Virus record (IMG/VR): IMGVR_UViG_2645727640_000017
DNA length: 11,246 bases
Direction: 5' to 3' (one strand)
DNA from: a virus
Taxonomy: Duplodnaviria > Heunggongvirae > Uroviricota > Caudoviricetes
Shown here: positions 1-11,246 of the stretch, in pieces
Layout: each line of letters opens with the position of its first letter
Numbering within the stretch: the stretch's first letter is position 1
Program-made: the position numbers and the translations under genes
Notes under the pieces: generated by a model
The model's database searches: none
The model's input: only the letters and a program-made list of their open reading frames with translations
Told to the model about the DNA's origin: nothing

Positions 1-569
1 GACGCAGACAAAAAAATCTGGTTACGCTGGTAAGGTTGCGCCACATCGTCACGCAGCGCCATCAGCAGTGCTTCCTGTGCAAAATACCAGGTCGCTCCAA
101 TCTGTCGGGATTTCAGGATCATCCTGTTACGTATCCCGGCTTCCCTGCAAAGTGTCAGGGAGTCAAACCAGCCCCGCTGATGCCACTCCAGCCTGCTGAT
201 GATTTTTTCCCGCAGTGCGGCAATCTGTTCCGGCGTGAAATGATTTTTGAGTTTTTTCGCCCGGCTTTTCTTTCCTGTGGCCGTCGCATCCGGCTGGCCA
301 TCATGCAGTTTTTTAAGCTGCCGGGTCAGCAGGTCTATTTCCTTGAAGTCACCACCTGTTTTATTCTGTTTTTCAGTAAGCTGGATGAGGCGCGCATCGA
401 TGGACTGCGTGACACGCTGCACGGGTGGCGTTTCATCCCACTGGTCGCGTTTTTTCCACGCATAAATCGTGTTCGGGTTTATTCCCATCAGACGTGATAT
501 TTCTGCGGGCGGATAACCCTGCCAGTAAAGTTGCCGCGCACGCTGGCGCACAAAAGCGTCCTGAATCAT
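1..569 (-). CDS. P: Terminase large (ATPase) subunit, P2 gpP-like; N-terminal ~189 codons only, gene continues past the window start
   Basis: Minus-strand frame is open from ATG (complement of 567-569) to the window edge; it is absent from the supplied track because it has no in-window stop. My translation starts MIQDAFVRQRARQLYWQGYPPAEISRLMGINPNTIYAWKKRDQWDE and contains ILKSRQIGATWYFAQEALL, which I recognise as the N-terminal region of P2-family terminase ATPase subunits. It is divergent from the scaffold gene as in P2. A GGGGGAG motif lies just upstream of the start on the minus strand. Confidence 0.8.
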   Translation of the reverse strand, partial: MIQDAFVRQRARQLYWQGYPPAEISRLMGINPNTIYAWKKRDQWDETPPVQRVTQSIDARLIQLTEKQNKTGGDFKEIDLLTRQLKKLHDGQPDATATGKKSRAKKLKNHFTPEQIAALREKIISRLEWHQRGWFDSLTLCREAGIRNRMILKSRQIGATWYFAQEALLMALRDDVAQPYQRNQIFLSA

Positions 570-724
570 TGCTCCCCCTGAGTAATTACAGGAAGATTAC
601 CCGCGCGCGAAACCGTTCTCCTTAACCCCCTGTTCTGGCCGTTTTCTTACAACAAAAGCCCTTTGTATCAGCCTGTTACGCTTTGCCATCATGACTGAAG
701 AACCAGTCAGAGGGGCAAAAAACT
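570..724. promoter_or_regulatory. Divergent intergenic control region between gpP and gpO; expected site of the back-to-back late promoters (P2 P_P/P_O equivalents)
   Basis: 155-bp non-coding gap between two divergently oriented genes. Contains an imperfect dyad TGT(631-633)...ACA(649-651) with a 15-nt spacer; I did not find an exact Ogr-type TGT-N12-ACA. GAGGGG at 710-715 is the likely ribosome binding site for gpO. The promoter call is by position and synteny only. Confidence 0.35.
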
Positions 725-1561
725 ATGACTAATGAAAAAAAGACATCCCGCAAAAAGTTTCGCGTGGCTGTCTCCGGTGTGACGGCAGACGGGCGCGAAA
801 TAAACGGCGACATGCTGAAAGCTGCCGCCACCAGTTATAACCCGTCCGTTTATGGTGCACGTGTGAATATTGAGCACATCCTGTCACCACTCCCCGGTAG
901 CGAGTTTTCCGCTATGGGCGATGTTGTGGGGTTGAGCACCGAAGACATAACCGATGGCCCGCTGGCAGGTCGCACGGCACTGTATGCCGAAATTGAGCCG
1001 ACCGCTCGCATGATGTCCCTGCTTAACGATGGTAAAAAAATTTACTCCAGTATTGAGCTGGAACCACAGTCAACCATCACGGGAGGCCCTTACCTGCGCG
1101 GGCTGGCAATGACCGACACCCCCGCCAGCCTGGGCACGGAACGTCTGGCCTTTGCGGCACAACAACGTATGCAACTGATGACATTCAACTGTCAGCAGGG
1201 AGACGTGGCGATGTTCACCGCCGCTATGGAGTCAGAACTTATCGAACTCACCGAACAACGTCAGGAAGAAGGCACCCAGTGGTTTAACCGCGTTATGGGG
1301 ATTATTGGCCGTGGCCGCAAAGCGGATGACGCCAGTTTCTCCCGTATTCAGGAAGCGGTGGAAGGTGTCGCAACGTCACAGGCCGACATTATCGACCGTT
1401 TTAATGCGCTAGAAACCCGCCATCAGCAGGACAGCCAGAAAATCACTTCGCTGACCACAGAGCTGACAACACTGAAGGAAAAGCTGCGCACGCAGGACGG
1501 CGATCCGCAGAACCGGTTCACCGCAACGGGCGCAGCCTCCGACCAGCTGGCTGACTTCTGA
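725..1561 (+). CDS. O: Capsid scaffolding protein, P2 gpO-like
   Basis: 278-aa ORF with ATG at 725 preceded by GAGGGG. It sits first after the divergent region and immediately upstream of the major capsid gene. The N-terminal region and the internal LAMTDTPASLGTE motif resemble P2 gpO as I recall it. Confidence 0.88.
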   Translation: MTNEKKTSRKKFRVAVSGVTADGREINGDMLKAAATSYNPSVYGARVNIEHILSPLPGSEFSAMGDVVGLSTEDITDGPLAGRTALYAEIEPTARMMSLLNDGKKIYSSIELEPQSTITGGPYLRGLAMTDTPASLGTERLAFAAQQRMQLMTFNCQQGDVAMFTAAMESELIELTEQRQEEGTQWFNRVMGIIGRGRKADDASFSRIQEAVEGVATSQADIIDRFNALETRHQQDSQKITSLTTELTTLKEKLRTQDGDPQNRFTATGAASDQLADF

Positions 1562-1584
1562 TAAGACAAAGGAGCAAATTTTTT

Positions 1585-2637
1585 ATGAATCTGGTGATGT
1601 CAGATAATGCCCGTAACAAGCTGGGCTGCTACATGACGCGACAGGCGTCGATTAACAATATCCCGGTTTCTGGACTGGTATCGCGATTTACCGTGGAACC
1701 CGCGGTGCAGCAGCGTTTTGAAAACGCCTCAAAGGATAGCACCGAACTTACAAAAAAAATTAACGTGATCGGTGTGACCGACCAGAAAGGCGAAAAAGTC
1801 CTCATGGACACCACCGGGCCGATTGCGCGCACAAATACCAGTTATGACGGCACAGATCGCCGCAACCCGATTAACGCTGTCGACCTGAAGTCCCGTCAGT
1901 ACCAGTGTGAGCAGGTGAACTACGACACGTTTATTTCGTATCCGCAGCTTGATGCCTGGGCGGCGCACAATGACTTCCAGACCCGCATCAGCGCACAGAT
2001 TGCCCGACAGGTGGCGCTTGACCGCATCATGATCGGCTTTAACGGCACGTCACACGCGGAAAAATCCAACTTCAGCACCAACAAGCTGCTTCAGGACGTT
2101 AACGTGGGGTGGCTGGAGCACATCAGAACCAATGCCAGCGCGCGCGTAATGAATGACGTGACGCTGACCTCCCGCAACATGGACAACACCGTGGCGCACG
2201 CGGGTAAGTATGCGAACGCTGATGCACTGGTACAGGACGCACGCTCATCCCTGCTGGATGAATGGCACAAGGAAGCTGACGACCTCGTGGTGATTATGGG
2301 GCGCAACCTGTTTAACTCGCTGCGTCTGCCCGTGCTGAACAGCATCAGCGGCCAGAATCCCAATGCGGAATTACTTGCCGGGCAGCTCATCCTGTCATCG
2401 CGCACCATTGGCGGGCTGGGCGTGTTCCTTGCGCCGTTCTTCCCGGATGCAACGATGCTGATCACCTCGTTCAACAACCTGTCGATTTACTGGCAGAAAG
2501 GTTCAATGCGTCGTCTGATGAAAGACGAACCGGAATACAACCGCATCGCCACCTACCAGTCCATCAATGACGCTTATGTCGTTGAAGACTATGGCAAGTG
2601 CGCGATGGTCACTGGCCTGAAGTTCGCCGACAGCTAA
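1585..2637 (+). CDS. N: Major capsid protein, P2 gpN-like
   Basis: 350-aa ORF with GGAG at 1571-1574 ten nt upstream of ATG 1585. Conserved blocks typical of P2-family major capsid proteins (FTVEPAVQQ, VGWL, LITSFNNLSIYWQ, YVVEDYG) and the expected position after the scaffold gene. Confidence 0.92.
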   Translation: MNLVMSDNARNKLGCYMTRQASINNIPVSGLVSRFTVEPAVQQRFENASKDSTELTKKINVIGVTDQKGEKVLMDTTGPIARTNTSYDGTDRRNPINAVDLKSRQYQCEQVNYDTFISYPQLDAWAAHNDFQTRISAQIARQVALDRIMIGFNGTSHAEKSNFSTNKLLQDVNVGWLEHIRTNASARVMNDVTLTSRNMDNTVAHAGKYANADALVQDARSSLLDEWHKEADDLVVIMGRNLFNSLRLPVLNSISGQNPNAELLAGQLILSSRTIGGLGVFLAPFFPDATMLITSFNNLSIYWQKGSMRRLMKDEPEYNRIATYQSINDAYVVEDYGKCAMVTGLKFADS

Positions 2638-2646
2638 TCAACTCAC

Positions 2647-2665
2647 GGCGGGCATCATGCCCGCC
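2647..2665 (+). other. Perfect GC-rich hairpin in the N-M intergenic gap (8-bp stem GGCGGGCA/TGCCCGCC, 3-nt loop), no downstream U-tract
   Basis: Read directly: ggcgggca-tca-tgcccgcc at 2647-2665, ten nt after the gpN stop and six nt before the GGAGAG ribosome binding site of gpM. Confidence 0.5.
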
Positions 2666-2682
2666 TGTAACGGAGAGAAAAA

Positions 2683-3483
2683 ATGATTACTCCTGCACAA
2701 CAACACTGGCAGAACGTGATGGCACAGCGCGCAGGCCGGGCGAATGAAGGCGTGGACCACGCCGCGCGTACCGCGCATGAAGAGGTGCTGTATCGTCTGC
2801 GTCTGGCACAGGCCCGGCTTAAGGGCGTACAGGCCAGAAGCGCGAAAGCCGCCATCAAAAAAGAGTTGTTGCCGGATTTTTCCGGCTGGATTGAGGGAAC
2901 GCTGGAGGCTGACGGCGGGCAGCAGGATGAAGTGATTGCCACGCTGATGGTGTGGGCAATTGACTGCGGCGATCTTCCGCTGGCGTTGCGTATTGGTGCG
3001 TATGTGGTCCGTCATAACCTCATTATGCCGGATAACTTTGGCCGTACTGCTGCCACAGTGCTGACCGAAGAAATCTGCAACCCGGTACTGACGCAGGCCG
3101 GGACGGATGCCGACGCGGATTTGTCCGCCTTTATCGAACCACTGGATACCCTCCGGGAGATTGTCACCGACCAGGACATGCCGGACGAAGTGCGCGCCAA
3201 ATTATGCAAGGCGTGCGCCTTTGCCCGCCGTGGCCTGAGTGATGCGGACAGCATGGCCCTGTCACTGAAGCTGCTGCGCGAAGCAATGCACCTGAACCCG
3301 AATGCAGGTGTGAAACGCGAGATTGCAACCCTTTCCCGCGCCCTGAAAAAAGCCGATTCCGCAGCCGAACCAGAAGACGCCAGCGCACAGCAGGCGCAGG
3401 ACGAAAGCAGCAAAAGTAAAAAGACAACGCGGAAGCCTGCAACACGAAAAACCACCGCGACGCAGAAGGCGAAGCGCGGTTAA
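2683..3483 (+). CDS. M: Terminase small (endonuclease) subunit, P2 gpM-like
   Basis: 266-aa ORF with GGAGAG five nt upstream of ATG 2683. KKELLP, MPDEVRAKL and AGVKREI blocks and the basic K/R-rich C-terminal tail match the P2 gpM family. Position after N is as in P2. Confidence 0.86.
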   Translation: MITPAQQHWQNVMAQRAGRANEGVDHAARTAHEEVLYRLRLAQARLKGVQARSAKAAIKKELLPDFSGWIEGTLEADGGQQDEVIATLMVWAIDCGDLPLALRIGAYVVRHNLIMPDNFGRTAATVLTEEICNPVLTQAGTDADADLSAFIEPLDTLREIVTDQDMPDEVRAKLCKACAFARRGLSDADSMALSLKLLREAMHLNPNAGVKREIATLSRALKKADSAAEPEDASAQQAQDESSKSKKTTRKPATRKTTATQKAKRG

Positions 3484-3499
3484 CGACTGACCCCGTCAG

Positions 3500-3570
3500 C
3501 GGGCGGCGTGCGCGGTGTTCCGGTTTGACTCCGTGACCGTTTACACCGCGCACCCACCGCCCGATTTTTT
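3500..3570 (+). terminator. Candidate intrinsic terminator/attenuator: long interrupted GC-rich inverted repeat followed by T6, between gpM and gpL
   Basis: Left arm CGGGCGGCGTGCGCGGTGT (3500-3518) pairs with right arm ACACCGCGCACCCACCGCCCG (3543-3563) as 11 bp plus 7 bp perfect pairs with a small internal loop. The 24-nt apical region contains its own CGGT/ACCG mini-stem. This is followed by A then TTTTTT (3565-3570), then AGGAG (3572-3576) and the gpL start. Confidence 0.4.
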
Positions 3571-3584
3571 CAGGAGTGAACCCC

Positions 3585-4079
3585 ATGAGTATGGTTGCCA
3601 GAACCAACCCCGGACCCGCAGAGGACGACATCACCGATACCGATGATGGTGATATCCGTATTTCAGCGGGTGCATTCTGGCCGGATATTGTGCTGCGTGA
3701 GCTGCGTCTGGCGGTACGACTGCCGGGCCGTGTGACCACCTCCCGCCTGCTGCATACCGCCACTGGGGCCGTGGCACACGTTACCCGCGAGCTGGAAGCA
3801 TGGCAGCAGGAACAGCAGGCGGCTGGCCATCAGACGCTGGCCGATGTTCCGGCACCCGTAATTAACGGAGAAAGCGTCAATCTCTGGCACTGGCGCAATG
3901 CTGTTTATACCGCCACACGCGCCCTGATTCTGGAGCGTTACCGCGATGCAGACACAACGGACAAGGGCGACCGCCGGGCGGACGCACTGGATATACAGAC
4001 ATCGGATTTGTGGCGCGATGTGAGCTGGGCCATCTCTGACATTCTGCGCCGCCCGCGAATCTTTGCGGAGTTGTGCTGA
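3585..4079 (+). CDS. L: Head completion/stabilisation protein, P2 gpL-like
   Basis: The track ORF 3576..4079 begins at a GTG that overlaps the ribosome binding site; I chose ATG 3585, eight nt after AGGAG. The LADVPA..INGESV..WRD motifs resemble P2 gpL. The stop TGA (4077-4079) overlaps the gpX start. Confidence 0.85.
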   Translation: MSMVARTNPGPAEDDITDTDDGDIRISAGAFWPDIVLRELRLAVRLPGRVTTSRLLHTATGAVAHVTRELEAWQQEQQAAGHQTLADVPAPVINGESVNLWHWRNAVYTATRALILERYRDADTTDKGDRRADALDIQTSDLWRDVSWAISDILRRPRIFAELC

Positions 4080-4279
4080 TGAAGGTGAAGGCACTGGAAG
4101 GCGACACCGTGGATTCGCTCTGTTTCCGGTACTACGGCACGACGCAGGGCGTCACCGAAAAGGTGCTGGATGCCAACCCCGGGCTCTGTCAGCAGGTATT
4201 TCTGGACGCCGGGCAGGAAGTGGAGATGCCGGAGCCGGAGAAGAAGAAACGAGAAATGATTCAGTTGTGGGGGGAATAG
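4079..4279 (+). CDS. X: Small tail protein, P2 gpX-like (LysM-like fold family)
   Basis: 66-aa ORF from ATG 4079 (tgATG overlap with the gpL stop). The GDTVDSLCFRYYG...VLDANPGL pattern matches gpX-family proteins, and it sits between L and the holin as in P2. Confidence 0.82.
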   Translation: MKVKALEGDTVDSLCFRYYGTTQGVTEKVLDANPGLCQQVFLDAGQEVEMPEPEKKKREMIQLWGE

Positions 4280-4281
4280 CA

Positions 4282-4605
4282 GTGAGCACCATTCAAACAG
4301 GGATTACAGAGCAGGTTATTGCATGGCTCTTTGACCACCTGCCAACGGTGTATGCAGTAGGCGCGGCGGTCAGCATTTCCGCGCTGATGAGTCTTTATGA
4401 CGGACGAACACTGGTTCAGACCGTAACGGGATCGCTGGCGTGCGGCGTTCTTGCCATGGCCGTGGCCGGGTCGTTGCGCTTCTTCGGGTTTCCTGAAGAT
4501 GCCGTGACGTTTATCGGCGCATCAATCGGTTTTATGGGCGCAGAGAAAGCACGCGACAAGGTTATTGCGGCCTTTAATCGCAGGGTGAAGGAGAAGGACG
4601 AATGA
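4282..4605 (+). CDS. Holin (three predicted transmembrane segments, highly charged C-terminus)
   Basis: The track ORF 4063..4605 overlaps gpL/gpX in another frame, so I trimmed it to the in-frame GTG 4282, six nt after a GGGGGGA run. An alternative GTG lies at 4267. Hydrophobic stretches VIAWLFDHLPTVYAVGAAVSISALMSLY, TGSLACGVLAMAVAGSL and FIGASIGFMGA are followed by EKARDKVIAAFNRRVKEKDE. It occupies the position of P2 gene Y. Confidence 0.68.
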   Translation: MSTIQTGITEQVIAWLFDHLPTVYAVGAAVSISALMSLYDGRTLVQTVTGSLACGVLAMAVAGSLRFFGFPEDAVTFIGASIGFMGAEKARDKVIAAFNRRVKEKDE

Positions 4606-4994
4606 GCAACACATTTAAATTCAGCAGCCGGAGCGAAAAGAATTTGCAGGGCGTAAATCCTGAGCTGGTGAAAGTGACCCGACGGGCACTGGAAATTTCG
4701 GAAGTGGATTTTGGTATCACCGAAGGGTTGCGCAGCCGTTACCGCCAGAAGCAACTTGTGGCCACGGGTAAGAGCCAGACCATGAACAGCCGCCACCTTA
4801 CGGGGCATGCCGTGGATGTTGTGGCTTATATCGGCAGCCAGGTGTCATGGGAATGGCCGCTGTACGAAAAAATCGCAGCAGCATTCAGACAGGCCAGCCG
4901 GGAACTGAATATTCCGGTGGAATGGGGCGGCGACTGGAAGACCCTGAAAGACGGACCGCATTTTCAGTTACCGCACGGAGTTTATCCGGCATGA
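4602..4994 (+). CDS. Endolysin, Zn-dependent peptidase M15 family (L-alanyl-D-glutamate endopeptidase, T5-endolysin-like)
   Basis: 130-aa ORF with AAGGAG (4588-4593) eight nt upstream of ATG 4602, and an ATGA overlap with the holin stop. Candidate Zn-ligand pattern SRHLTGHAVD ... DGPHFQ and overall resemblance to the small T5-type endolysin. No signal peptide. Confidence 0.82.
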   Translation: MSNTFKFSSRSEKNLQGVNPELVKVTRRALEISEVDFGITEGLRSRYRQKQLVATGKSQTMNSRHLTGHAVDVVAYIGSQVSWEWPLYEKIAAAFRQASRELNIPVEWGGDWKTLKDGPHFQLPHGVYPA

Positions 4995-5398
4995 AGCTCT
5001 GGCCCACGCTGGGCGTCGCTTTCCTTCTGATTGCCGCATGGGGAACATCCATGCGTCTGTCGTGGTCGCTTGGCCGGGAGAACGCCAGAAACGAAGTGCA
5101 GGCCAGCACCCTGAAAAGCACCGTCGACACCCTGAATATCATCAGCACCGGGGTACAGGATATGCAGCAGGTGCTGGCGCAACTCCGCGTGGAAAATCAA
5201 CAGAGAAATCAGGACGGAGAGGCCAGACGTGAACAGCTACGCAACGATATTGCAAAAGATGAATGCGCCCACGCTTTGCCTGACGCTCGTTTTACTGACA
5301 GGTTGCGCAGGCACGCAGAACGCGCCACGGCCAGCGCCGTCAGTCCGGCTTATACCGCAGACGCTGACCATACCGGTAACGCCTCCCCCCTTCCCTGA
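4991..5398 (+). CDS. lysB: i-spanin (Rz-like), P2 LysB equivalent
   Basis: ATG 4991 overlaps the endolysin stop (ATGA). N-terminal transmembrane segment LWPTLGVAFLLIAAWGTSM followed by a charged, Q/R/E-rich predicted coiled-coil region. The track ORF 4847..5398 is an upstream extension in the same frame that overlaps the endolysin. Confidence 0.78.
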   Translation: MKLWPTLGVAFLLIAAWGTSMRLSWSLGRENARNEVQASTLKSTVDTLNIISTGVQDMQQVLAQLRVENQQRNQDGEARREQLRNDIAKDECAHALPDARFTDRLRRHAERATASAVSPAYTADADHTGNASPLP

Positions 5399-5549
5399 TA
5401 CTCCCACATGGGGAAATCTCGGTATATGGGGCGACCGCCTTCTGGATGCACTGGAAACCTGTAACGCGGATAAACGGGCCATTGAATTACTGGAACAGCG
5501 CAGGCTGCAACGACTGAACAACGAGGATAACAACCATGCTGAAAACTGA
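5229..5549 (+). CDS. lysC: o-spanin lipoprotein (Rz1-like), P2 LysC equivalent; starts inside lysB in another frame and extends past it
   Basis: GTG 5229 lies six nt after GGAGAGG (5216-5222); an alternative ATG is at 5259. Lipobox LLTGC in MNSYATILQKMNAPTLCLTLVLLTGC, followed by a proline-rich mature region (PRPAPSVRLIPQTLTIPVTPPPFPDTP). Overlaps the 3' half of lysB and 14 nt of gpR. Confidence 0.68.
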   Translation: MNSYATILQKMNAPTLCLTLVLLTGCAGTQNAPRPAPSVRLIPQTLTIPVTPPPFPDTPTWGNLGIWGDRLLDALETCNADKRAIELLEQRRLQRLNNEDNNHAEN

Positions 5550-6003
5550 TTCCCTGCGTGAAGCCATGACCCGTTCATGCCGATGGTGTCAGGCCAACCC
5601 GGAAAAATTCACCATTTTCGTGGAGAGCGGCAATATTGAAACGACCGGAGAAACGCCCTCGTTTGTTTACCACTATCAGATGGTGATGTTTGTCATGGAT
5701 TACGCCGGAGAGCTGGACGACCTCACGCTGCCGCTGCTGGCGTGGTTATCCGAAAATCAGCCACAGTTGCTGCTCAATCCGAAGCGTAATCAGGACATCA
5801 AATTTTCTGCCGTTATCAATGACGATGACAGCGCCGATCTCCTGTTTACGCTCCCCCTGCAGGAACGCGTTCGCATCACGCGCAGCAGTCAGGGTACACC
5901 GCAGGCAGAACACCTGCCGGAGCCAAAACCCCGCCTGCCCTCTTCCGAAGGCGACTGGTCGCATGTATTCCAGGATGTGACGTGGAGTGAAAGCGATGGA
6001 TAA
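5536..6003 (+). CDS. R: Tail completion protein, P2 gpR-like
   Basis: 155-aa ORF. MLKTDSLREAMT...FVESGNIE...LPLLAWLSENQPQLL matches the gpR family as I recall it. Position after the lysis genes is as in P2. Confidence 0.86.
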   Translation: MLKTDSLREAMTRSCRWCQANPEKFTIFVESGNIETTGETPSFVYHYQMVMFVMDYAGELDDLTLPLLAWLSENQPQLLLNPKRNQDIKFSAVINDDDSADLLFTLPLQERVRITRSSQGTPQAEHLPEPKPRLPSSEGDWSHVFQDVTWSESDG

Positions 6004-6631
6004 GGCATTCATCCGCGTGGATGAAACCTTTGAGGCCATCCGCGACAGCCTGAATCAGCAGGCCATCAATAACATCGCCAGAAAGCTGGCACAGGATTTA
6101 CGTCGCGCCCAGCAGGCACGTATCCGGTCACAGAAAGCGCCGGACGGGACCGCATGGACACCACGCAGACGCCGCGTAACCCGGATACAGGAGCGCATTC
6201 GCTTTATCTGGAATAACGAAGCACGCACGCTGAAAAACTGGCATCACGACACGGGGAAATACGGGCGAACCATCACCGGGTGGGATGAGGATAAAAACAA
6301 TATCCGCACGTTTTACCGGGATGACATCGACCGTTTTCTGGAAATACGCACCCGGCGCATCAACCAGGACAGCACAAAGCGCGTCCCCATGTTCGTAAAA
6401 CTGCGCACCGCCCGCCACCTGAAAGCCCGTGCAGATGCTTCCGGTGTGACGGTGGGTTACAGCGGCGTGGCCGCACGTATTGCACGCGTTCATCAGTTCG
6501 GTGAGCGCGATCAGGTTGCGCCGGGCATTTTCACCGATTACCCGGTACGTGAGCTGTTGGGCATCAGTCAGGCAGATGAACGCCTGATTTATAACACGGT
6601 GCTGGGCCGGATTGCGGAGGCTGTACGGTGA
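5996..6631 (+). CDS. S: Tail completion / virion morphogenesis protein, P2 gpS family
   Basis: ATG 5996 lies eight nt after GGAG (5984-5987) and overlaps the gpR stop; the track starts at the upstream GTG 5987. The stop overlaps the gpV start (GTGA). Assigned from conserved position between R and V and family-like sequence (QKAPDGTAWTPRRR...ARVHQFGERD). Confidence 0.8.
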   Translation: MDKAFIRVDETFEAIRDSLNQQAINNIARKLAQDLRRAQQARIRSQKAPDGTAWTPRRRRVTRIQERIRFIWNNEARTLKNWHHDTGKYGRTITGWDEDKNNIRTFYRDDIDRFLEIRTRRINQDSTKRVPMFVKLRTARHLKARADASGVTVGYSGVAARIARVHQFGERDQVAPGIFTDYPVRELLGISQADERLIYNTVLGRIAEAVR

Positions 6632-7209
6632 GCGCAGAACTCATGCGACTGCTGAGCAACATCATCCGCACCGGGATCATCTCTGAAGTTGATGAGAAAT
6701 CCTGGTGCGTGCGCGTTCGCAGCGGCGAACTGGAAACAGGCTGGTTGCGCTGGAACACCACGCGCGCGGGAGCCTTCAATGTGTGGCTGCCGCCATCACC
6801 CGGCGAACAGGTGGTAATTGCCTGCATTGGCGGCAACCCGGAAACCGCCATGATAATTGGCAGCCTGTGGAGTGATACCAATCCGGCCCCCGGCAAAAGC
6901 CTGAAAGAAATCGTGGTCAGCGCGCCGGATGGCGCGGTGTTCCGCTACGACGCGGACGCAGGCGCACTGAGCGCCAGCGGCATGAAAACAGCCAGCCTGC
7001 AGGCATCCGTCAGCGTGACACTGGACACGCCCGTCGTGGAATGCACAAACCTTCTGAGAACGGCGACGCTTGACGTCACAAAAGGGGGAAAGATGAGCGG
7101 CAATATCACGCACAGCGGCGGCAATTTCACCTCAAACGGCATCACAGTGCATACGCATAAGCACGGTGGCGTTAAAGGTGGCAGCGATTCGACAGGAGGC
7201 CCGCAGTGA
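6628..7209 (+). CDS. V: Baseplate spike/assembly protein, P2 gpV-like
   Basis: GTG 6628 lies seven nt after GGAGG (6616-6620); an alternative ATG is at 6643. IRTGII...WLRW..RAG...GEQV...KHGGVKGGSDSTGGP blocks match gpV-family spike proteins. Confidence 0.9.
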   Translation: MSAELMRLLSNIIRTGIISEVDEKSWCVRVRSGELETGWLRWNTTRAGAFNVWLPPSPGEQVVIACIGGNPETAMIIGSLWSDTNPAPGKSLKEIVVSAPDGAVFRYDADAGALSASGMKTASLQASVSVTLDTPVVECTNLLRTATLDVTKGGKMSGNITHSGGNFTSNGITVHTHKHGGVKGGSDSTGGPQ

Positions 7210-7556
7210 CAACCCGCTACACAGGAATGAACCCGGACGGGACGGGAAACCTGAACGATATGGAGCACCTGAAACAGTCAGTCAGGGATATCCTGACCAC
7301 CCCGCTGGCAAGCCGGGTTATGCGACGGGAATATGGCAGCCTTTTGCCTGATTTGATTGACGAACCCATGAATAACACCACGCGTCTGCAATGCATGAGT
7401 GCTGCCGTGATTGCACTGACACGATGGGAACCCCGCATTGCCCTGGACGCCATCGACGTTGTCTGGAAGGCAGGAGGCCGCGCCGGGGTGACGCTGTCGG
7501 GCACTGTCATGCAGACCATGCAGAATGTTGAATTAACCATCACGCTGAGGGAGTAA
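7206..7556 (+). CDS. W: Baseplate wedge protein, P2 gpW-like (gp25/lysozyme-like fold family)
   Basis: GTG start overlaps the gpV stop (GTGA). The N-terminus MTTRYTGMN and the SRVMRREYGSLLPDLID block match P2 gpW as I recall it. Confidence 0.9.
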   Translation: MTTRYTGMNPDGTGNLNDMEHLKQSVRDILTTPLASRVMRREYGSLLPDLIDEPMNNTTRLQCMSAAVIALTRWEPRIALDAIDVVWKAGGRAGVTLSGTVMQTMQNVELTITLRE

Positions 7557-7559
7557 ATC

Positions 7560-8456
7560 ATGCCCGCCGTTGACCTTTCCCAGTTACCGGAACCCGCCAT
7601 CATCGCGGAGCCTGACTTTGAAGCAATTCTGGCTGACACAAAAGCCATGATGATTGCGTCCTATCCCGCCGAACAGCGTGAAGCCGTTTCCGCCGCGCTG
7701 GAGCTGGAATCGGAACCCCTTAACGTTATCGCCCAGACAACAGCGTTTCGTGAAATGCTGTTACGCCAGCGGGTCAATGAGGGTGCACGCGCCTGCATGT
7801 TAAGCCACAGCGCCGGGACAGACCTGGACAACCTCGCGGGCAATATGAACACAAAGCGCCTGGTTATCACTCCGGCAACGGATACCACCGACGCGGTGAT
7901 GGAGAGCGACACCTCGCTGAGACTGCGGGCGCAGCGGGCGTACGACGGCCTGAGTGTTGCTGGCCCGTCAGGTGCATACGAGTATTTTGCCCGCAGCGCC
8001 AGCGGTCTGGTGCGTGATGCGCGGGCTATCAGTCCGTCTCCGGCCAATGTGACGGTTTCCATCCTGTCCACTGAAGGCGACGGCACAGCAACGGAGGCGT
8101 TGCTTAATACCGTTCGCGCCGTTCTGAATGCAGAGGATACCCGCCCGGTGGCCGACCGCCTGACGGTACAGAGCGCCAGAATCGTGACATGGCGGCTGAA
8201 TGCAAAACTGTACTTTTACCCCGGTCCGGAATCCGAACCTATTCTGGCCGCGGCGGAATCGTCGTTCAGGAAGTGGCTGGCTGAGCAGGGGCTTATCGGT
8301 CAGGACGTGGCGCTGTCAGCCATTGCTGCCGCACTGCATGTGCACGGTGTGCAACGCGTGGAGATAATCGAACCCACACAGAATATGGCCATCAGCGACA
8401 TACAGGCGGCGCGCTGTGAGTCATTCACCATCAGCGAAGGTGGGCGCAATGAGTAA
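7560..8456 (+). CDS. J: Baseplate protein, P2 gpJ-like
   Basis: 298-aa ORF with GGGAG seven nt upstream of ATG 7560. MPAVDLSQLPEP...RPVADRLTVQSA...LHVHGVQRVE blocks match gpJ. Confidence 0.9.
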   Translation: MPAVDLSQLPEPAIIAEPDFEAILADTKAMMIASYPAEQREAVSAALELESEPLNVIAQTTAFREMLLRQRVNEGARACMLSHSAGTDLDNLAGNMNTKRLVITPATDTTDAVMESDTSLRLRAQRAYDGLSVAGPSGAYEYFARSASGLVRDARAISPSPANVTVSILSTEGDGTATEALLNTVRAVLNAEDTRPVADRLTVQSARIVTWRLNAKLYFYPGPESEPILAAAESSFRKWLAEQGLIGQDVALSAIAAALHVHGVQRVEIIEPTQNMAISDIQAARCESFTISEGGRNE

Positions 8457-8979
8457 TTCGTTGTTACCACCATCAGCCAGCAATTTCATGCGTTGTGCCG
8501 AAGCCGTCGGAACACGCATTACAGACATTCCGGTAGACCTCAACACGCTGTGGTCGCCGGACACCTGCCCGGTGCATCTGCTGCCTTATCTCGCCTGGGC
8601 GTTTTCCGTTGACCGCTGGGATCGCAACTGGCCGGAAGAGACAAAGCGACAGGTGATTCGTGATGCATGGCTGATACACCGACACAAAGGGACCATCAGC
8701 GCACTGCGCCGGGCCATTGAGCCGCTGGGATACCTCATTCGTGTGTCTGAGTGGTGGGAGTTCGACGGAGAACCGGGAACATTTACCGTTGAAGTGGGCA
8801 CGCTGGACAGTGGCGTGACGGAGGAAATGTATCTGGAAATGGAGCGGTTGATTGCTGATGCCCGCCCGGCCAGCCGCCACATGACAGGGCTGAATATCAT
8901 TCAGGAAATTCCGGGAGATATTTTCGCGGCGGCAGCAACTTACGACGGTGAAGTCATTACCATTTATCCGGACGATTAA
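8449..8979 (+). CDS. I: Baseplate protein, P2 gpI-like
   Basis: ATG 8449 overlaps the gpJ stop (ATGAGTAA); the track ORF begins at 8416 inside gpJ. LWSPDTCPVHLLPYLAWAFSVDRWD and EMERLIADARPASRH blocks match gpI. Confidence 0.88.
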   Translation: MSNSLLPPSASNFMRCAEAVGTRITDIPVDLNTLWSPDTCPVHLLPYLAWAFSVDRWDRNWPEETKRQVIRDAWLIHRHKGTISALRRAIEPLGYLIRVSEWWEFDGEPGTFTVEVGTLDSGVTEEMYLEMERLIADARPASRHMTGLNIIQEIPGDIFAAAATYDGEVITIYPDD

Positions 8980-8981
8980 GC

Positions 8982-11084
8982 ATGAGTACCACAACACGAA
9001 AATTTAAAACCGTTATCACCGATACGGGTGCAAAAAAATTAGCTCAGGCAGCCGCGCCAGATGGTAAGCCTGTCCGCCTGACTCATATGGCCGTGGGCGA
9101 CGGTGGCGGCACGTTGCCCACACCAGACAGTAAGCAGACCCGTCTGGTGCATGAGGTGTGGCGACACACTGTTAATCGCGTCATCCTGGACGCAACACAT
9201 CAGAACCGCATTATTGCGGAGCTGGTTATTCCTCCTGAAACGGGCGGATTCTGGATCCGGGAAATTGGTGTATTTGATGAGCACGGCGATTTGATCGCGG
9301 TGGGCAATACTGCGGAAAGTTACAAGCCAGCCGTTGCCGAAGGATCCGGACGTGCACAAACATTTCGCACCATTCTGACCGTATCCAGCACTGCCACCGT
9401 GGCGCTTACCGTGGATAACACCATGGTGATGGCCTCAGTGGATTACGTGGATGACAAACTGAAAGAGCATGAACAGTCACGACGTCACCCGGATGCCTCT
9501 CTGACCGCAAAAGGCTTTGTTCAACTCAGTAGCGCCACTAACAGCGATTCTGAAACGCTGGCTGCAACGCTGAAAGCGGTTAAGGCCGCGTATGACCTGG
9601 CTAACGGAAAATATACCGCTCAGGACGCCACGACGGCACAAAAAGGGATAGTTCAGCTCAGTAGTGCCACCAACAGCACGTCTGAAACACTGGCCGCGAC
9701 ATCGAAAGCGGTTAAGGCGGTAATGGATGAAACGAACAAGAAAGCCCCATTAAACAGCCCGGCACTGACCGGAACGCCAACAACACCAACTGCACAACAG
9801 GGAACGAATAATACCCAAATCGCAAGCACGGCTTTCGTTATGGCCGCGATTGCCGCACTTGTAGACTCTTCACCTGACGCACTGAACACGCTGAACGAGC
9901 TGGCGGCGGCGCTGGGAAACGACCCGAATTTTGCGACCACCATGACTAACGCGCTTGCGGGTAAGCAACCGAAAGATGCCACCCTGACGGCGCTGGCCGG
10001 GCTTGCTACTGCGGCAGACAGGTTTCCGTATTTTACGGGGAATGATGTCGCCAGCCTGGCAACTCTGACAAAAGTAGGGCGGGATATTCTTGCGAAATCG
10101 ACCGTTGCCGCTGTTATCGAATACCTCGGTTTACAGGAAACGGTAAATCAGGCTTCTGGAGCATTACAAAAAAACCAGAACGGCGCGGATATTCCGGGAA
10201 AAGATACCTTCACCAAAAATATTGGGGCCTGCCGCGCATATGGCGCATGGCTGGATATTGGTGGCGATAATCAGGTCTGGACAACCGCGCAATTTATTTC
10301 GTGGCTGGAGAGTCAGGGAGCATTTAACCATCCTTACTGGATGTGCAAAGGCTCATGGGCTTATGCAAATAATAAGGTCATTACAGATACAGGTTGCGGA
10401 GATATTGGTCTTGCAGGTGCTGTGGTGGAAGTTATTGGCACTCGCGGCGCAATGACCATACGCGTTACCACGCCGAGTACGTCCAGCGGCAGCGGAATTA
10501 CTAACGCTCAATTCACTTATATTAATCATGGTGATGCTTATGCTCCTGGCTGGCGACGGGACTACAACACGAAAAATCAACAACCTGCATTTGCTTTAGG
10601 GCAAACAGGACGCAGGGTCGCAAATGATAAAGCTGTTGGCTGGAACTGGAATAGCGGTGTTTATGATGCAGATATCAGTGGTGCATCGACATTAATCCTC
10701 CACTTCAATATGAATGCGGGGAGTTGCCCTGCCGTACAGTTCCGCGTGAATTACAGGAATGGCGGTATTTTTTATCGTTCAGCGCGTGATGGTTATGGAT
10801 TTGAAGCTGACTGGTCAGAGTTTTACACCACAACCCGCAAACCCTCTGCGGGGGATGTTGGTGCATATACTCAGGCAGAATGTAACTCAAGGTTTATTAC
10901 AGGTATTCGCCTTGGCGGTCTGTCATCTGTTCAGACATGGAATGGTCCCGGCTGGTCTGACAGGTCAGGTTATGTCGTTACGGGTTCAGTTAACGGAAAC
11001 CGTGATGCATTAATTGATACAACTCAGGCAAGGCCAATTCAGTATTGCATTAATGGAACGTGGTATAACGCGGGGAGTATTTAA
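8982..11084 (+). CDS. H: Tail fibre protein, P2 gpH-like; conserved N-terminal ~390 aa joined to a compositionally distinct C-terminal receptor-binding region
   Basis: 700-aa ORF. The N-terminal half ([11 protein letters not shown]...MAVGDGGG...IAELVIPPE..., [38 protein letters not shown]) matches P2 gpH. The final 300 or so residues are Gly/Asn/Trp-rich and visibly lower in GC, ending in the INGTWYN-type tip. Confidence 0.9.
9510..9722 (+). repeat. Two copies of an 81-bp in-frame imperfect direct repeat inside gpH (9510-9590 and 9642-9722), encoding KG(F/I)[21 protein letters not shown]
   Basis: Codon-by-codon comparison of the two 27-codon blocks gives 63 of 81 identical nt (about 78%); the copies are 132 bp apart. 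Confidence 0.75.
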
Positions 11085-11086
11085 TC

Positions 11087-11180
11087 ATGATGCACTTAAA
11101 AAACATTACTGCTGGCAACCCTAAAACAAAAGAGCAATACCAGCTAACGAAACAATTTAACATCAAATGGCTTTATACAG
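11087..11180 (+). pseudogene. tfa: Tail fibre assembly (chaperone) gene, 5' fragment of about 31 codons, interrupted by IS5
   Basis: ATGATG at 11087 two nt after the gpH stop. Encodes [31 protein letters not shown], which matches the N-terminus of the Tfa/P2-G chaperone family. After nt 11180 the frame reads into IS5 terminal sequence and stops at TGA 11216-11218. Confidence 0.75.
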
Positions 11181-11246
11181 GGAAGGTGCGAATAAGCGGG
11201 GAAATACTTCTCGGCTGACTCAGTCATTTCATTTCTTCATGTTTGA
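11181..11246 (-). mobile_element. IS5 terminus (16-bp terminal inverted repeat GGAAGGTGCGAATAAG plus 50 bp of internal sequence); element continues beyond the window, transposase expected on the - strand
   Basis: ggaaggtgcgaataagcggggaaatacttctcggctgactcagtcatttcatttcttcatgtttga matches the IS5 end sequence as I remember it from E. coli, with at most one mismatch. It begins exactly where the tfa reading frame loses family similarity. Confidence 0.78.

Follow-up and report, generated by a model that had tools for sequence, protein, structure and literature searches.

A tail-fibre-assembly gene (tfa) of a P88-like E. coli prophage is truncated by the end of an IS5 element inside an invertible segment, and its chaperone product is very probably dead in the orientation shown. 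The window, that is, the whole stretch of 11,246 bp that was analysed, is the complete draft contig JHRS01000269.1 of the E. coli assembly GCA_001265595.1. Alignments on both sides of the junction show that IS5 cuts tfa after 94 nt, and that the gene has lost most of its fibre-binding N-terminal domain together with the whole conserved C-terminal trimerisation domain.

Gene content and gene order, as read from the sequence, show JHRS01000269.1 to be the late-gene region of a P88-like prophage of the P2 family (Peduoviridae). A partial large terminase gene (1-569, minus strand), cut by the left contig edge, is followed by genes for scaffold, P2-type major capsid, small terminase, head completion, tail X, holin and M15 endolysin. 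Next come a DUF2570 gene (4991-5398), overlapped by a LysC (Rz1-like) gene, and then R, S, V, W, J, I and the tail fibre gene, so that both the set and the order are those of P2-type late genes (O, N, M, L, X, lysis, R, S, V, W, J, I, H, G). Apart from the terminase, partial at the edge, the displayed late genes up to the fibre are intact, each with the expected P2-type Pfam family. The tail fibre gene itself (8982..11084, plus strand in the list of open reading frames) is P2 H-like, encodes 700 aa and carries the Phage_tail_fib and Phage_fiber_2 families. Fibres of 700 aa are also found in the related prophages L010, L074 and L076, and an exact look-up of the fibre protein returned the source contig only. 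Among named phages, Escherichia phage 520873, Xuanwuvirus P884B11 and phage P88 (Peduoviridae) come closest; the late-gene order is shared with them, but their nucleotide identity is about 95%, not exact, over 91-96% of window positions 1-11180. The P2-family assignment made in the preliminary description is thus borne out both by the Pfam families and by P88 and Xuanwuvirus being the closest phages. Among complete genomes, the closest prophage is that of strain 720632 (NZ_CP025842.1, L010), at 98.4%.

The left contig break falls within the large terminase gene, and the same region runs on to 30.7 kb in another contig, JHTM01000075.1. This break hints that the genome has a further P2-like prophage, or some other repeat, which might give tail functions in trans. 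In the P88-like prophages L010 (23858-29180) and L070 (13494-20336), the U, tape measure, E, tube and sheath genes are not on the same strand as the fibre genes but on the other one, and gene D comes after them on the forward strand. In P2, these tail genes all run in one direction.

The tfa start codon (ATG, 11087-11089) lies 9 nt past a GGGGAG ribosome-binding site and 3 nt past the fibre stop (11084), i.e. directly downstream of its own fibre gene, as expected for Tfa. The 5' fragment of tfa (11087..11180, plus strand) comprises 31 codons and 1 nt out of 177 codons. It is identical (94/94 nt, 31/31 aa) to the annotated intact gene encoding the 177-aa protein WP_000972170.1, and full-length homologues of the fragment (177 aa) carry the Caudo_TAP domain (PF02413). 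The match to the Tfa family over about 31 codons, reported earlier from the letters alone, has thus held up against PF02413 proteins. The comparison with related prophages that had been called for was run as well: the near-identical prophage L076 carries a full 177-aa tfa, with which the window shares 94/94 nt. Similarity to intact tfa stops exactly after G11180, where the intact allele continues with AGGATGGG and the window with GGAAGGTG. Read across the junction, intact relatives have ...TTTATACAG AGGATGGGAAAAAC, and the window has ...TTTATACAG GGAAGGTGCGAATAAGC.

Beyond this point, the translated frame continues as a Tfa–IS5 fusion of 43 codons (11087..11218, plus strand), which is called as a gene and in which 31 residues of Tfa are followed by 12 encoded by the IS and then by a TGA stop at 11216-11218. 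A complete Tfa domain, with its N-terminal fibre-binding and conserved C-terminal parts, is absent, the frame departing after residue 31 of 177. The likeness to P2 gpG, Mu Tfa (U/U') and lambda Tfa (Caudo_TAP) lies in the N-terminal 31 residues and in the position after the fibre gene. Compared with these Caudo_TAP proteins, the window keeps 17% of the gene and holds a pseudogene fragment, not a functional member of the family. Another truncated-Tfa candidate (P0097, 146 aa, 'EDGKNW...') was rejected because it belongs to a different tfa allele, cut short by the contig edge in unrelated assemblies.

Gene callers list the 43-aa fusion at 11087..11218 on two NCBI contigs only, JHRS01000269.1 and JHTM01000075.1. 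The latter belongs to an independent assembly (GCA_001506145.1); it has the identical junction and stops 97 nt into IS5. Such an identical junction in two assemblies indicates that it is real and inherited, and no assembly chimera. An assembly artefact or a chance reading frame is indeed extremely unlikely: the contig does end in a multi-copy repeat, where mis-joins may occur, but 20 positions in 10 kb distinguish the two prophages that share the junction, and the letters on its two sides match an annotated intact tfa (94/94 nt), in its conserved place after the fibre gene, and IS5 (66/66 nt). These matches also rule out the possibility, raised in the preliminary description, that the tfa start could be a chance open reading frame; the start is genuine. 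Of the 20 differences, the small-terminase gene accounts for thirteen and the S/V region for six (window 2751-3285, 6416-6877). Clustered in this way, they look like recombination patches and not like clock-like divergence.

The rest of the window, from 11181 to 11246, is the terminal 66 nt of IS5 (minus strand). It is identical (66/66) to the ends of two 1195-bp elements (L004 and L005), both annotated by PGAP as 'IS5-like element IS5 family transposase', which excludes an element other than IS5. The terminal inverted repeat GGAAGGTGCGAAYAAG stands at the element end, positions 11181-11196 reading GGAAGGTGCGAATAAG, and the alignment to IS5 thereby confirms the inverted repeat first recognised by eye from 11181 onwards. 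Of the two reference copies, which come from complete genomes, one lies beside a truncated fimZ and the other between traJ and traM; both are flanked by TTAA on this side. Their transposase CDS runs on the opposite strand, its end 146 nt away from this terminus, so that the IS5 end seen in the window is the side near the transposase 3' end. The transposase of the interrupting element would hence be found past the right edge of the window, on the minus strand and antiparallel to tfa.

This IS5 end is a minority variant with an A at IS position 26 (11206), where most copies have a T. An exact 66-nt match was found in 64 of 2085 E. coli records, the remainder showing 95-99% identity; the exact-match records listed include strains 99-3165, F5656C1, 2011EL-1370-2 and FMU073332. 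With usual disruptions by IS5 (IS5 family, IS5 group; 1195 bp) in E. coli, the present case shares the terminal repeat and the 66/66 identity, but it differs from them in its flank, which is ACAG and not YTAR, in the minority A26 variant and in a contig that reaches 66 nt into the element. In many of the 56 IMG/VR matches to this IS5 end, IS5 likewise sits inside a prophage gene. Short-read assemblies break in the multi-copy IS5, which is why the window stops there; its right edge is not the prophage end.

The four base pairs flanking the IS5 end (ACAG, 11177..11180) had been remarked from the outset as unlike the YTAR target, from which they are two positions off. The weight of this deviation was assessed by a flank survey of every IMG/VR contig with this IS5 end. 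YTAR was found at 48 of 55 distinct flanks. Among the 24 IS5 copies with both ends present, 17 have perfect duplications, all of them YTAR (17/17), and the flanks of the other seven are unmatched; non-YTAR flanks are confined to surveyed copies whose two flanks mismatch. Intact tfa offers six canonical YTAR sites, four of which (11096, 11121, 11144 and 11157) lie unused in the 74 nt directly upstream of the junction. A strong YTAR preference also emerged from the 220 duplications reconstructed in a mutation-accumulation study (PMC5009759), and IS5 hits were abolished when YTAR was taken out of a target gene (PMC10359306). Since all 17 perfect duplications are YTAR, the survey argues against a plain insertion at ACAG. 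The early doubt about a simple insertion was therefore well founded.

The truncated gene belongs to a larger switchable unit. A gix/cix-like invertase crossover site is found within the fibre gene at 10113..10143, with its core at 10124-10140. The 17-mer CCTCGGTTTACAGGAAA occurs once in the window, at 10124-10140, where 0.01 occurrences are expected by chance. The site marks the boundary between the constant and variable parts of the fibre, at about codon 381, and it resembles the Mu gix site (TTCCTGTAAACCGAGGTTTTGGATAA). It corresponds to the left arm of the inverted repeat, containing CCTCGGTTTACAGGAAA, that in relatives brackets a segment of about 3 kb, with arms at 2267-2311 and 5303-5347 in L001, and the same arrangement in L071 and L073. 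The part of this segment present in the window (10124..11246) includes the variable fibre tip, the tfa 5' fragment and the IS5 end, the cassette being flipped in relatives. In L069, L071 and L073, window positions 1-10150/10195 align forward and 10114-11186 align in reverse, as a silent cassette with tfa intact; the repeat region corresponds to 10114-10195 of the window. Both orientations thus occur, by comparison between genomes and not within one culture. Past tfa, the relatives have a second chaperone gene (tfa') and a second fibre tip, both inverted, as well as a serine recombinase (Resolvase and HTH_7 families), and the second, inverted crossover site with an adjacent serine invertase is present in L001, L010, L067, L069, L071 and L073.

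The flipped cassette of L069, L071 and L073, compared with the window at sequence level, shows that a Gin/Cin-type segment alternates between two host-range cassettes, one of which consists of the fibre tip (the last 320 codons or so) and tfa; IS5 sits within that segment. The arrangement is that of the Mu G, P1 C and e14 P segments (Gin, Cin and Pin), which also have a crossover site in the fibre gene, inverted tip–chaperone cassettes and a serine invertase. The difference is that the segment described here resides in a P88-like Peduoviridae prophage and has IS5 inside it. Whether an intact copy might lie beyond the IS, as asked in the preliminary description, was the right question, relatives having indeed a second chaperone gene, tfa', just beyond.

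Several other observations concern this cassette. Its G+C content is 43%, compared with 55% for the window. Window positions 10850-11186 are about 98% identical to cassettes on E. coli plasmids of about 48 kb and about 95 kb, which are presumably phage-plasmids, and the host-range cassette appears to be shared by prophages and plasmid-borne elements. In L074, the inverted alternative fibre gene holds, at 14844-15391, a 548-nt inverted copy of window 9648-10195. This repeat far exceeds the roughly 80-nt one of the other relatives, so that in L074 the segment could be inverted by homologous recombination as well.

Two sibling alleles of the same prophage lineage bear on the junction, one of them at 99.3% and the other at 98.4% identity to the window. 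L076 (JHSO01000057.1, GCA_001266005.1) shows 1 mismatch in 2732 nt from gene I to tfa nt 94 and, being near-identical with tfa intact, serves as the empty-site allele. At 13691-13772, its contig ends in the same IS5 variant (A26), with the same terminus and orientation, inserted at a canonical TTAG target in tfa', the inverted partner gene, roughly 11 codons from its start. The insertion lies downstream of the window break point, the distance from tfa nt 95 to the L076 IS end being 962 nt, and the window and L076 match exactly over 68 nt (AG and the 66 nt of IS5). The 172-aa tfa'–IS5 fusion of L076 was not returned as an exact protein by the homology search. The other sibling is the prophage of strain 720632, where the same tfa is interrupted by IS600 after codon 55 (L010 20087-21887), an independent hit. 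Both siblings are thus distinguished from the window by the position of the insertion (tfa' at about codon 11 in a TTAG; tfa at codon 55), and one of them by the element itself.

The junction was looked for widely. Neither the window junction, whose best matches end at window 11186, nor the sibling tfa'::IS5 junction is present in 5,426 complete E. coli genomes. Pattern scans of IMG/VR, of GTDB species representatives and of JGI metagenomes found neither the left junction nor a junction between the IS5 right end and the tfa remainder. The exact 127-aa tfa remainder (from Met51, L076-type; P0155) was found on a single 1113-bp NCBI contig, where it has no protein accession, a feature common to this remainder and to the 43-aa fusion ORF. 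Contig-edge partials usually have a 'partial' accession and an arbitrary first residue, as in the other Tfa partials seen. Predicted right-junction ORFs starting from a TTG in the IS5 end, starting from Leu49, or lacking a duplication were not in the protein collection. A 127-aa Tfa starting from Met51, with strain-720632-type sequence, is also encoded on a 165-kb contig of E. coli MP021552.8 (EMX38063.1, P0122); from its sequence, this is a further N-terminally truncated Tfa allele.

How the junction arose can be approached from the sibling insertion 962 nt away. The reading preferred here, at somewhat better than even chances, is that the IS5 end of the window belongs to a second IS5 copy, which would have moved from the tfa' copy, over about 1 kb, to the non-canonical ACAG. 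IS5 is known for such local hopping, 19 new insertions having been found within 1 kb of an old copy where 1.5 were expected (PMC5009759). The tfa remainder would then lie on a fragment of about 1.1 kb with an IS5 copy on either side, and neither chaperone would work. The predicted order is an IS5 end (GGGACTTGTTCGCACCTTCC), a duplicate of 0-4 bp (ACAG), AGGATGGGAAAAACTGG, the tfa stop, the 3' part of tfa', GGTGTTTTAG and GGAAGGTGCG. With 962 nt, 4 nt and two IS overhangs of 66-97 nt, the expected inter-IS fragment would measure 1098-1160 bp. The 1113-bp contig with the exact tfa remainder indirectly favours this second-copy route over a deletion, because its size fits an inter-IS fragment and because its Met51 remainder lacks an accession just like the fusion ORF. 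Counting against the second copy, the remainder is recorded on one contig although the left junction is common to two assemblies.

A deletion of 962 nt adjacent to IS5, in an L076-like ancestor whose tfa was intact and whose tfa' had IS5 at TTAG, is a possible but clearly less probable origin. It would have run from tfa nt 95 to the IS5 end, creating the ACAG|IS5 junction, with only one IS5 copy left; most of tfa' would have been lost along with the tfa remainder, and the other IS5 flank would read TTAGCATTACCAGC (the tfa' 5' end), the prediction being an IS5 end, TTAG and then CATTACCAGCTTTTATG. Such an event would explain the non-YTAR flank without any non-canonical transposition, in line with the survey, where these flanks occur only at IS5 copies with unmatched flanks, and with the frequency of IS5-associated deletions (PMC5009759). 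It also accounts for L076 having the same IS5 variant, end and orientation, with 1 nt different in 2732 over the H–tfa region, and for the AG directly before the IS end at both junctions, a 2-nt microhomology. However, a microhomology of 2 nt is weak, a transposase-mediated adjacent deletion should still choose a YTAR target, and the exact tfa remainder on the 1113-bp contig, which fits an inter-IS fragment, would not exist in a genome having undergone the deletion. A larger rearrangement is improbable: the IS5 at 11181 would join an unrelated part of the chromosome, through an inversion, a translocation or a large deletion involving IS5 copies that lie far apart, and the prophage would be split or deprived of its tail sheath/tube half. 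The non-YTAR flank, the absence of the junction from complete genomes, the unmatched flanks of 7 of the 24 complete IS5 copies surveyed and the common occurrence of IS5–IS5 recombination (PMC5009759) would agree with it, but recombination of two IS5 copies makes no new non-YTAR flank, the sibling IS5 962 nt away provides a simpler local explanation, and the 1113-bp contig points to a local structure.

According to PMC9608196, which summarises work on Mu Tfa, the variable N-terminal domain binds the fibre and the conserved C-terminal helical domain drives trimer assembly; the predicted 31-residue stub, judged against this scheme, has neither. In the orientation shown, the fibre tip would be made without a working matching chaperone, and its receptor specificity would be lost. 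Infectivity could be rescued only by a flip to the other tip, given an intact tfa', a second crossover site and an invertase. The sibling IS5 in tfa' implies that tfa' is not safe either.

Disruption of prophage genes by IS elements is commonplace; this is a known kind of event, part of ordinary prophage decay, and all components come from well-known families. The finding is thus mainly an annotation point, namely a tfa pseudogene interrupted by IS5 within an invertible host-range segment, and one more case of insertion sequences eroding the infectivity genes of a prophage. The non-YTAR IS5 end, together with a canonical sibling 962 nt off, makes it a natural example of what is either a local hop or an adjacent deletion. 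The repeated IS hits in two chaperone genes of one prophage lineage are of a second, minor interest: three IS alleles occur in these two genes, the other displayed late genes being intact. With these three alleles (tfa::IS5 at ACAG, tfa'::IS5 at TTAG and tfa::IS600) present in a dozen or so closely related prophages, it could be that the invertible cassette's chaperone genes are a preferred or selected IS target in P88-like prophages, or that the YTAR rule of IS5 is relaxed in very short hops. This proposal is unlikely to be right, and since the sampling was centred on the tfa locus, the clustering of IS hits there is no proper test of it. If true, a preferred target could mean that the host has been selected for an inducible, non-infectious, fibre-defective prophage.
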